Below are positions 5,159 to 6,212 of a stretch of 16,314 bases of DNA, in pieces. The stretch spans positions 1 through 16,314 of the IMG/VR virus record IMGVR_UViG_2547132273_000004. The stretch is one strand, 5' to 3'. Both the position numbers and the translations under genes were made by a program. The notes under the pieces are model-generated. The model had not been told where the DNA came from. It did not search any database and saw only the letters and a list, made by a program, of their open reading frames with translations. Origin of the DNA: a virus. Its lineage: Duplodnaviria; Heunggongvirae; Uroviricota; Caudoviricetes. Position 1 is the first letter of the stretch; every line of letters starts with the position of its first letter.

Positions 5159-5811
5159 ATCGAACTAGCTGGCGCATCATTAAAAATAGTGAAGAGCATG
5201 CTGCAGCTATGGAAAGGCTCATTGAACTTGCGTCTAGTGATTTACAACCTGGAACTGAAGATTTTGATGAGTTTGAACTACTAGGCTTGCTTATCGAGCA
5301 CTATGAGTCACGCGAGTTCCCTATGGACAAGCCAGATCCCATAGAAGCAATCAAGTTCCGTATGGATCAACAAGGCCTCTCTTATGCCGATATGAAACAA
5401 TACATTGGCTCAGCATCTAAAGTATCTGAGGTCTTAAATCGTAAGCGTCCATTAAGTCTTTCAATGATCCGTAGACTACATGACGGACTTGGAATTCCTG
5501 CAGATATCTTAATTCAAGATATGAGCGCAATTGAATGGATCCTAGTTGACGCAGAGGAAGAAGAAACAGCCATGACTAGCGTCATTGCTCGGTGTGAGTC
5601 AGCCGTCACATCACCTTCTGCTTATTTCGCTGAAAAGGCTACAGAATCTTACTTTTCAAAAATGTTGTTCAGCGCAGTAAGGGGTAATGGCAAATGCAAA
5701 GAAAAACGGAATGTTTTTTCTTTGATAAGTAACTTGTCATCAAGTTTCACAGCGGCTAGCAACCTGAATGACGAAATGACTTCTGACGGAAATTACTTAT
5801 TATTACCATGA
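5155..5811 (+). CDS. HigA-like HTH antitoxin with about 85-aa C-terminal extension (candidate chaperone-addiction domain)
   Basis: 218 aa; residues 1-about 130 align with remembered E. coli HigA (MDQQGLSYADMKQYIGSASKVSEVLNRKRPLSLSMIRRLHDGLGIPADILI versus LMDQYGLTLSDLPEIGSKSMVSRVLSGKRKLTLEHAKKLATRFGISPALFI); the C-terminal about 85 aa has no HigA counterpart; ATGA overlaps at both ends. Confidence 0.7.
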   Translation: MNRTSWRIIKNSEEHAAAMERLIELASSDLQPGTEDFDEFELLGLLIEHYESREFPMDKPDPIEAIKFRMDQQGLSYADMKQYIGSASKVSEVLNRKRPLSLSMIRRLHDGLGIPADILIQDMSAIEWILVDAEEEETAMTSVIARCESAVTSPSAYFAEKATESYFSKMLFSAVRGNGKCKEKRNVFSLISNLSSSFTAASNLNDEMTSDGNYLLLP

Positions 5812-6212
5812 AAATTGAACTCATTAGCAAAAAAGTTGAACGCTTGGTTATGACACGGCTAGAAGGCGATTCAACAGCAAAAAAAGCCATAAAAACAACC
5901 GTTAATCTAAATAATGAACTTTACACTAATGTGAAGGATTCAAAGCTATTTAGAGTGAGATATTTTGCCTCCGTAACTATTGAAGGCAGGCTTGAGATGG
6001 ACATCACATACGACTTTGACTTCCGGTCAGAAGATGATTTTTCTCATGAAATGGCAAAATCATATGAGGTAAGGTCCATTGCTCCCAATATGGCATATCC
6101 CTATATAAAAACATATGCCGAGCAAATTATCCTCATGTCAAACCTTGGTAGGTTCACTCTGCCTTATTTTGATTTCTTGGCCAATCCCATGGAAACGAAC
6201 AGTAATAAGTGA
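5808..6212 (+). CDS. SecB-like chaperone (putative TAC chaperone)
   Basis: 134 aa; C-terminal segment IAPNMAYPYIKTYAEQIILMSNLGRFTLPYFDFLANP parallels the SecB motif [36 protein letters not shown]; third gene of the cassette, translationally coupled. Confidence 0.55.
   Translation: MKIELISKKVERLVMTRLEGDSTAKKAIKTTVNLNNELYTNVKDSKLFRVRYFASVTIEGRLEMDITYDFDFRSEDDFSHEMAKSYEVRSIAPNMAYPYIKTYAEQIILMSNLGRFTLPYFDFLANPMETNSNK

Follow-up and report, generated by a model that had tools for sequence, protein, structure and literature searches.

The window analyzed here, a 16,314-nucleotide stretch of viral DNA from the IMG/VR record IMGVR_UViG_2547132273_000004, contains a three-gene cassette whose last gene, open reading frame (ORF) 3, very probably encodes HigC, the SecB-like chaperone of the tripartite toxin–antitoxin–chaperone (TAC) anti-phage module higBAC of a lambdoid prophage. 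ORF3 lies at 5808–6212 (+), begins with ATG, ends with TGA and codes for 134 amino acids. The cassette has the order higB–higA–ORF3 on a single strand, with start and stop codons overlapping as ATGA at both junctions; an original prediction made from the sequence had described a third cassette gene at this place, and both the 134-residue reading frame and its place as third gene are borne out. ATGA overlaps are the usual mark of translational coupling, and from their presence at both junctions we read higB–higA–higC as a translationally coupled operon. As the third gene directly after a type II toxin–antitoxin pair, ORF3 has the tricistronic position of TAC chaperones. The window system is already known, as an allele of one that has been published and dissected by experiment, and it adds no discovery beyond the 2024 publication. 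The preprint describing that system reportedly appeared later in Cell Host & Microbe.

The published system is HigBAC of Escherichia coli NT1F31, an anti-phage TAC module (Mets et al. 2024; bioRxiv 10.1101/2024.02.24.581848). Strain NT1F31 was located in the E. coli genome collection and its locus, taken from NZ_CP045190.1, was compared directly with the window. HigC (WP_112844288.1) is identical at 133/134 positions (A27 in the window, T27 in NT1F31), HigA (WP_112844289.1) at 216/218 (I129 and R185 in the window, S129 and Q185 in NT1F31) and HigB (WP_112844290.1) at 94/95 (I31 in the window, R31 in NT1F31). The DNA from the cI stop codon through the spacer, cassette and terminator shows 99.0% nucleotide identity, and both loci lie 3′ of cI in a lambdoid prophage and end in the same terminator. 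The primers and DNA fragments given in the publication can be placed on the window with few natural differences, the published construct beginning at window position 4721. The published HigA is a 218-residue protein with a chaperone-addiction (ChAD) region at 122–218 that carries the aromatic anchors W128, F158, F188 and Y214, and the pockets of the published HigC involve Y39, N41, R49 and D71 (bioRxiv 10.1101/2024.02.24.581848). All eight of these residues are present at the same positions in the window proteins. The carrier backbones differ: the NT1F31 prophage combines a replication module of the DnaB type with a lambda-type tail whose major tail protein, gpV, is identical to that of lambda over residues 24–186, whereas the window carrier encodes lambda-type O/P and shares its cassette allele with Shiga toxin (Stx) phages. 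The window allele would be expected to behave as the NT1F31 allele does.

The NT1F31 module has been characterized in some depth. HigB specifically blocks translation, and HigBA is toxic unless HigC is supplied (bioRxiv 10.1101/2024.02.24.581848). Deletion of residues 122–218 makes HigA chaperone-independent, HigC no longer rescues when the aromatic anchors are mutated together, and the R49A variant of HigC is inactive (bioRxiv 10.1101/2024.02.24.581848). By isothermal titration calorimetry, a peptide spanning HigA 121–148 binds HigC with a KD of 1.3 µM; a gpV 48–78 peptide, with a KD of 250 nM, is a competitor of the ChAD peptide (bioRxiv 10.1101/2024.02.24.581848). HigBAC confers protection from both lambda-vir and Bas25; escape mutants of lambda-vir have the substitution S54P in gpV, and co-expression of gpV triggers toxicity (bioRxiv 10.1101/2024.02.24.581848).

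By analogy with these experiments, the window system would use its chaperone as a sensor, a tail-protein mimic titrating HigC and thereby releasing the toxin. In the lysogen, higB, higA and higC would be co-expressed in translationally coupled form, and HigC, predicted to be a tetramer with the SecB fold, would hold the otherwise destabilizing 96-residue C-terminal ChAD tail of HigA, with the four anchors seated in equivalent HigC pockets lined by Y39, N41, R49 and D71. With its tail held, the helix-turn-helix (HTH) domain of HigA would be able to neutralize the HigB mRNA interferase. Upon infection by a susceptible siphovirus such as lambda, nascent gpV, presenting a similar aromatic and acidic pattern, would compete for HigC, so that HigA would lose its chaperone and the freed HigB RNase would shut down translation and abort the infection. 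The AlphaFold-Multimer models in the publication take HigC to be a tetramer (bioRxiv 10.1101/2024.02.24.581848), and a tetramer has been observed for the Mycobacterium tuberculosis TAC chaperone Rv1957 (PMC6377645); the window HigC is presumably tetrameric as well.

The SecB-like character of HigC is most evident in its predicted fold. A homology search returned 28 relatives of HigC, 50–99% identical to it, from the genera Escherichia, Klebsiella, Citrobacter, Salmonella, Serratia and Pantoea. Twenty of the 28 were aligned as input for AlphaFold2, and the resulting monomer model has a mean pLDDT of 86.9 and a pTM of 0.80. It comprises four long β-strands (residues 3–17, 30–40, 47–58 and 62–74) and one long helix (86–110). 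In a Foldseek search of the Protein Data Bank (PDB), the first match to this model is Rv1957 (5mtw; TM score 0.73–0.75), followed by E. coli and Haemophilus influenzae SecB (0.65–0.77). The original prediction had named structure prediction and fold comparison with SecB as a check, and the model passes it. Of the pocket residues, N41, R49 and D71 do not vary among the 20 homologues, and conservation of Y39 is 90% or higher. The triad itself, made up of a HigB of ~95 residues, a HigA of 220–241 residues and HigC, is retained in Pantoea, Serratia and other Enterobacteriaceae whose HigC is as little as 50% identical. The genes usually overlap by 4 nt and mostly lie 3′ of a cI-type repressor gene, in prophages that are mosaic elsewhere.

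A sequence connection to SecB is provided by CmdC, the validated TAC chaperone of the CmdTAC defence system, whose sequence was rebuilt from published DNA fragments. ORF3 matches the PADLOC CmdC model (PD-T4-9_C) over its full length at 3.2e-11, and hhalign aligns the HigC family profile with CmdC over 122 columns (probability 96.5%, E 7.9e-10). CmdC in turn scores above the gathering threshold of the Pfam SecB family (PF02556; 27.1 versus 26 bits, with 196 bits for E. coli SecB itself), and its alignment with SecB outscores 2999 of 3000 shuffled sequences. The profile match between HigC and CmdC, together with the passage of CmdC in Pfam SecB, thus links HigC to SecB through an intermediate sequence. 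ORF3 does not reach the 26-bit threshold. Four of the 20 HigC family members give sub-threshold Pfam SecB matches (profile positions 15–130 of 141; best score 21.6 bits).

The original prediction had rested its SecB assignment on a motif, aligning an ORF3 segment with a conserved SecB region that corresponds to residues 102–137 of the E. coli protein. The E. coli SecB sequence used for this comparison was verified against PDB 5jtl_A (155/155 residues identical). The segment IAPNMAYPYIKTYAEQIILMSNLGRFTLPYFDFLANP (ORF3 91–127) is real and lies in the homologous helix, and its PN...PY core is reproduced by all methods. In pairwise comparison the resemblance to E. coli SecB is not beyond chance, and the alignment of the second half of the motif (G.F..L.L.P..FD.L) varies with where gaps are set: BLASTP and hhalign introduce the three-residue gap that the prediction had used, and a MAFFT alignment bridged by CmdC is gapless. 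BLASTP of ORF3 against E. coli SecB finds 9/32 identities (E 0.02, as a single comparison), and hhalign of the ORF3 family profile gives a probability of 0.3% and E 0.2. The Smith–Waterman score of 34, compared with 26.6 ± 4.2 for shuffled sequences, is equalled or exceeded by 217 of 3000 shuffles. With ORF3 alone, Pfam SecB yields no match at E ≤ 1, and the single Pfam match, 3Beta_HSD at E 0.13, is spurious. Searches of PDB sequences with ORF3 and with its family profile retrieve no SecB chain, the best matches being RPABC3 (E 0.09) and thioredoxin (E 1.1). The motif therefore sits where a SecB homologue should have it, and the relationship itself rests on the fold and the intermediate sequences, not on the motif.

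Several features separate HigC from a SecB that functions in export. It is shorter than SecB (134 versus 155 residues) and lacks the acidic C-terminal tail, as had been predicted, with a net charge of 0 versus −14 overall and −1 versus −4 in the last 15 residues. Shortness is not a rule of the family: Rv1957 is longer than SecB and partly able to replace it. HigC ends 11 residues after a conserved LP.F.F segment, and its predicted structure has no helix past residue 110, the C-terminal α2 helix and acidic tail of SecB having no counterpart in the model. In SecB, D20, E24 and E77 form an acidic cluster on the β-sheet that binds the zinc-finger tail of SecA; Rv1957 has R32, A36 and D102 at these positions, a change linked to its weaker complementation of SecB (PMC6377645). 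The MAFFT alignment bridged by CmdC places R12, T16 and D65 of HigC there, so that two of the three acidic residues are lost, although the register of β1 and β4 is uncertain at 11–17% identity. The aligned residues are suggestive of a loss of the SecA-binding acidic cluster in HigC, in the same pattern as in Rv1957.

These features bear on the idea that ORF3 is a phage-borne paralogue of the export SecB that hands preproteins to SecA and is adjacent to higBA incidentally. The SecB fold is compatible with such a role, and a UniRef sequence identical to ORF3 bears the name 'Preprotein translocase subunit SecB'. Overexpressed E. coli SecB also partly suppresses HigBA toxicity, showing that the client spectra overlap (bioRxiv 10.1101/2024.02.24.581848). 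The suggested replacement of D20/E24/E77 by R12/T16/D65, which is the pattern of the export-impaired Rv1957 (PMC6377645), argues in the opposite direction, as do the neutral net charge, the missing tail and second helix, and the failure to reach the Pfam SecB gathering score. ORF3 is moreover coupled to higA in a triad that is conserved across genera, and its surroundings are not yibN–grxC–secB–gpsA but the immunity region of a prophage, with cI on one side and N on the other. We regard an export function as highly improbable. The SecB-like dedicated chaperone that the original prediction had proposed is supported by the fold, the bridge through CmdC and the near-identity to the published HigC.

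A second label attached to the family is that of a SMODS-associated NUDIX-type nucleotide-processing enzyme. The Pfam model PF18167 (Sa_NUDIX) matches eight of the 20 family members (P0020–P0027; best E 5.5e-6). One of these, P0027, exceeds the gathering score (26.9 versus 25 bits) and is named 'SMODS-associated NUDIX domain-containing protein' in UniRef. ORF3 itself has no PF18167 match, the fold matches include no Nudix structures and no Nudix box is present; the PF18167 matches also cover the same residues as the Pfam SecB matches. On the strength of the SecB fold, the missing Nudix box and these coinciding matches the Sa_NUDIX label was rejected, and we consider that ORF3 has virtually no chance of being such an enzyme. 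E. coli SecB does not cross-match PF18167, and a literature search for the family name returned nothing. Either the PF18167 model includes SecB-like sequences or the family is misnamed.

The remaining two proteins of the module agree with HigC as a dedicated TAC chaperone. HigB matches PADLOC PD-Lambda-2_A at 2.5e-42. HigA is composed of an HTH domain (residues ~1–121) and the ChAD extension (122–218). Its domain matches, in Pfam (HTH_3; residues 67–118) and PADLOC (PD-Lambda-2_B; residues 5–127, 5.2e-50), extend no farther than about residue 127, and residues 122–218 have no domain match; window HigA thus has the C-terminal extension past the neutralizing and DNA-binding domain that characterizes a ChAD antitoxin. 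Among HigA homologues, residues 1–127 are highly conserved and the rest of the tail has diverged. W128 never varies, and the remaining anchors are aromatic in nearly all copies, position 188 being lost in the most distant homologue (Pantoea, 45% identical).

Window HigB and HigC are identical to the copies in phage BP-4795 and E. coli O26:H11 11368, and the sole difference from their HigA is S129I. Ile129 (codon 5539–5541) directly follows the first anchor, W128, and the residue is S129 in BP-4795, O26:H11 11368, NT1F31 and CUVM3. The exact window HigA sequence is on record from one contig alone (Escherichia sp. TW15838). The allele of E. coli CUVM3 (L002:4001–5342, compared with window 4871–6212) shares 94.9% DNA identity with the window; all 15 substitutions in its HigA fall within residues 129–218 and none within 1–128, and HigC has 16 changes and HigB 2. 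This joint divergence of the ChAD tail and HigC, with the toxin and the HTH domain nearly fixed, suggests an arms-race-driven sensor under diversifying selection. The sensor specificity of the window allele may accordingly differ from that of its relatives.

No evidence contradicts the identification of ORF3 as the HigC of a TAC module, but it has some limits. The private S129I change in HigA adjoins the first ChAD anchor, and a small residue normally follows each anchor (bioRxiv 10.1101/2024.02.24.581848). Window HigC has A27 where the assayed NT1F31 protein has T27, a position in the low-confidence β1–β2 loop. The direct sequence similarity between HigC and housekeeping SecB is non-significant, and ORF3 fails the Pfam SecB threshold. 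Finally, the published defence assays used constitutive expression from a plasmid Ptet promoter and not the native prophage (bioRxiv 10.1101/2024.02.24.581848).

The window represents the early region of a lambdoid prophage of the Stx-phage type (Table 1). The minus strand carries ninB, P, O, cII and cro, and the plus strand has the order cI, cassette, N, followed farther along by a gene for a DUF2528 protein, cIII/kil, gam, bet, exo, dam, an ea22-like gene and the integrase gene. The repressor counterpart in the BP-4795 record is annotated as cI, and the window repressor is identical to that of NT1F31 at 233/234 positions. Operator-like repeats are found between cro and cI (oR, 3943–3991) and again between the cassette terminator and N, and this pair of repeat regions places the cassette between cI and oL/pL. 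In lambda the slot between cI and oL/pL is filled by rexAB and is the classic superinfection-exclusion position. The higBAC cassette occupies the rexAB-equivalent slot. Its G+C content is 40.1%, compared with 46.5% for the whole window, and the terminator that closes it starts 9 nt past the higC stop codon; the same element is named the native HigBAC terminator in the published constructs (bioRxiv 10.1101/2024.02.24.581848).

Table 1. Positions of the higBAC cassette and surrounding features in the window
Feature	Positions	Strand	Description or evidence
cI-type repressor	4030–4734	+	HTH and Peptidase_S24 domains; Pfam Peptidase_S24 3.8e-16
cI–higB spacer	4735–4870	+	137 bp, 5′ leader of the cassette; direct sequence reading
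higB	4871–5158	+	RelE-family ribosome-dependent mRNA interferase toxin, 95 aa; Pfam HigB_toxin 4.5e-30, 104 bits
higA	5155–5811	+	Antitoxin, 218 aa; Pfam HTH_3 at residues 67–118; start overlaps higB stop
ORF3 (higC)	5808–6212	+	Last gene of the cassette
Intrinsic terminator	6221–6247	+	Closes the cassette; strong, also delimited as 6221–6240; 7-bp stem with 6 G–C pairs, then TTTTCTTT; terminator scan
oL-type operator repeats	6426–6472	none	AATTTATCA/TGATAAA motifs, AATTTATCAT.TTGC; in common with oR (3943–3991); repeat families D3, I1, I8
N antiterminator	6618–7067	+	Pfam N_peptide 2.8e-15
Conserved early-left gene past N	7126–7596		156-aa ORF without Pfam match
Conserved early-left gene past N	7747–8115		122-aa DUF2528 protein (2e-47)
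Lambda-type integrase	13782–14852	+	Arm-DNA-bind_1 and Phage_integrase
Host pectinesterase-family gene	14987–16270		At the window end, following the integrase

By analogy with lambda rexAB, native transcription of the cassette is probably by read-through from pRM. The cI–higB spacer contains a palindrome (GTGAC-N6-GTCAC, 4733–4748) that overlaps the cI stop codon, and a hairpin (TTCCC-N5-GGGAA, 4817–4831) just 5′ of a perfect TATAAT (4839–4844). A sigma-70 consensus scan of the spacer returned no site, and there is no convincing −35 element. The palindrome and the hairpin with its TATAAT may be a HigA operator or elements of a weak internal promoter. Of the eight differences from NT1F31 that fall within the published fragment's initial 400 nt, seven lie 5′ of the higB start, most of them in the spacer.

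At the far end of the window, the gene that follows the integrase is, we assume from its position, ybhC, which adjoins the lambda attachment site; the prophage thus appears to be integrated at that site. The related NT1F31 prophage likewise adjoins ybhB and the bio operon. Past N, two early-left genes without an assigned function are conserved (Table 1), and the BP-4795 record names the counterpart of the DUF2528 protein 'putative single-stranded DNA binding protein'.

Type II toxin–antitoxin systems can stabilize mobile elements, and higBA was found as a plasmid-stability locus (bioRxiv 10.1101/2024.02.24.581848). The module might therefore act mainly in prophage addiction or stabilization through post-segregational killing, or regulate the lytic cycle of its own carrier, with defence as a secondary effect. 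Regulation of the carrier would draw on the fact that the NT1F31 prophage itself encodes gpV, the published trigger. The cassette lies in the classic superinfection-exclusion slot, however, and a gpV homologue is lacking in four Stx phages that have a cassette of the window type, so that self-regulation cannot be general. We judge a primarily stabilizing or self-regulatory role to be very unlikely; any such role is secondary to the demonstrated defence.

The trigger in the NT1F31 carrier can be described precisely. Its major tail protein (NZ_CP045190.1; L011:26668–27408, minus strand) is identical to lambda gpV at 239/246 positions, and residues 24–186, which include the trigger epitope 48–78 and the residues W36, S54, D61DED64 and W67, are identical throughout, which indicates that this carrier itself bears the published HigC trigger. 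Self-triggering by the carrier gpV is not discussed in the preprint text (bioRxiv 10.1101/2024.02.24.581848). A tblastn search with lambda gpV against four cassette-bearing Stx phages (BP-4795, Stx1_JNE122398, Stx2a_WGPS9 and ST2-8624) returned only noise at E ≤ 10. Two of these four are short-tailed members of Traversvirus, and BP-4795 has a different 'major tail subunit'. Over the five carriers checked, the cassette and the lambda-type tail may be anti-correlated. HigC might also engage its own carrier's tail protein, though this is rather unlikely. If it did so upon induction, HigBAC would limit or time the lytic cycle of the carrier or force exchanges of the tail module, and an anti-correlation between cassette and tail type would be expected across lambdoid phages.

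Thirty phage records contain the cassette DNA at 99% identity or more; almost all are Shiga-toxin phages (BP-4795, ST2-8624, Stx2a_WGPS9 and many Stx1a phages). Of 5426 complete E. coli genomes, 88 have the cassette, in every case on the chromosome. An identical HigC is encoded in the immunity regions of BP-4795, ST2-8624, the Stx1a phages of O26 and Stx2a_WGPS9; protection from lambda-like siphoviruses is therefore predicted for lysogens of Shiga toxin-producing E. coli (STEC), with a bearing on phage therapy, STEC biocontrol and competition between prophages. The databases do not reflect this role. The third gene is a 'hypothetical protein' in every RefSeq record listed, PHROGs places it in phrog_10298 with 'unknown function', and NCBIfam has no model for HigC. 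The remaining value of the present analysis is this annotation gap, which leaves the sensor subunit of a proven anti-phage system unnamed in all three resources.

Comparison with other known systems sets HigC apart from its structural relatives. Housekeeping SecB of E. coli and H. influenzae (1QYN, 5JTL and 1FX3; PF02556) shares 11–17% identity with HigC and differs in genomic context and client. Rv1957, from the HigBA1 TAC system of M. tuberculosis (Mtb-SecB-TA; PDB 5MTW; Guillet et al. 2019, PMC6377645), is 14–17% identical to HigC, has an extra N-terminal helix, has been discussed as stress-responsive and is no prophage defence module. The ChAD of that system is less than half as long, and its antitoxin is degraded by ClpXP, unlike NT1F31 HigA. 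Among lambdoid phages, RexAB of lambda fills the same cI–oL/pL slot and also excludes other phages, but is unrelated to higBAC in sequence and mechanism.

PD-lambda-2, an anti-lambda system (Vassallo et al. 2022), shares the HigB toxin and the N-terminal domain of HigA with the window. In that system the HigA-like domain forms a fusion with a peptidase, the third gene is of the P4 type, and neither a ChAD tail nor a SecB-like chaperone is present. One HigB/HigA N-terminal core (window 4871–5535) is thus paired with two sensor modules, either the ChAD with its chaperone or the PD-lambda-2 type. A chaperone from a different defence setting is CmdC of CmdTAC (PD-T4-9; Vassallo et al. 2022, PMC9519451; Mets et al. 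2024), a homologous SecB-like TAC chaperone of 128 residues with 22% identity to HigC, with which it shares the helix motif AP.(M/I)AYPY(I/V)(K/R). CmdC passes the Pfam SecB threshold, whereas HigC does not. Its partners are an ADP-ribosyltransferase toxin and an antitoxin unrelated to HigA, and its defence spectrum covers T-even phages. HigC can substitute for CmdC with CmdTA, but CmdC fails to neutralize HigBA (bioRxiv 10.1101/2024.02.24.581848).

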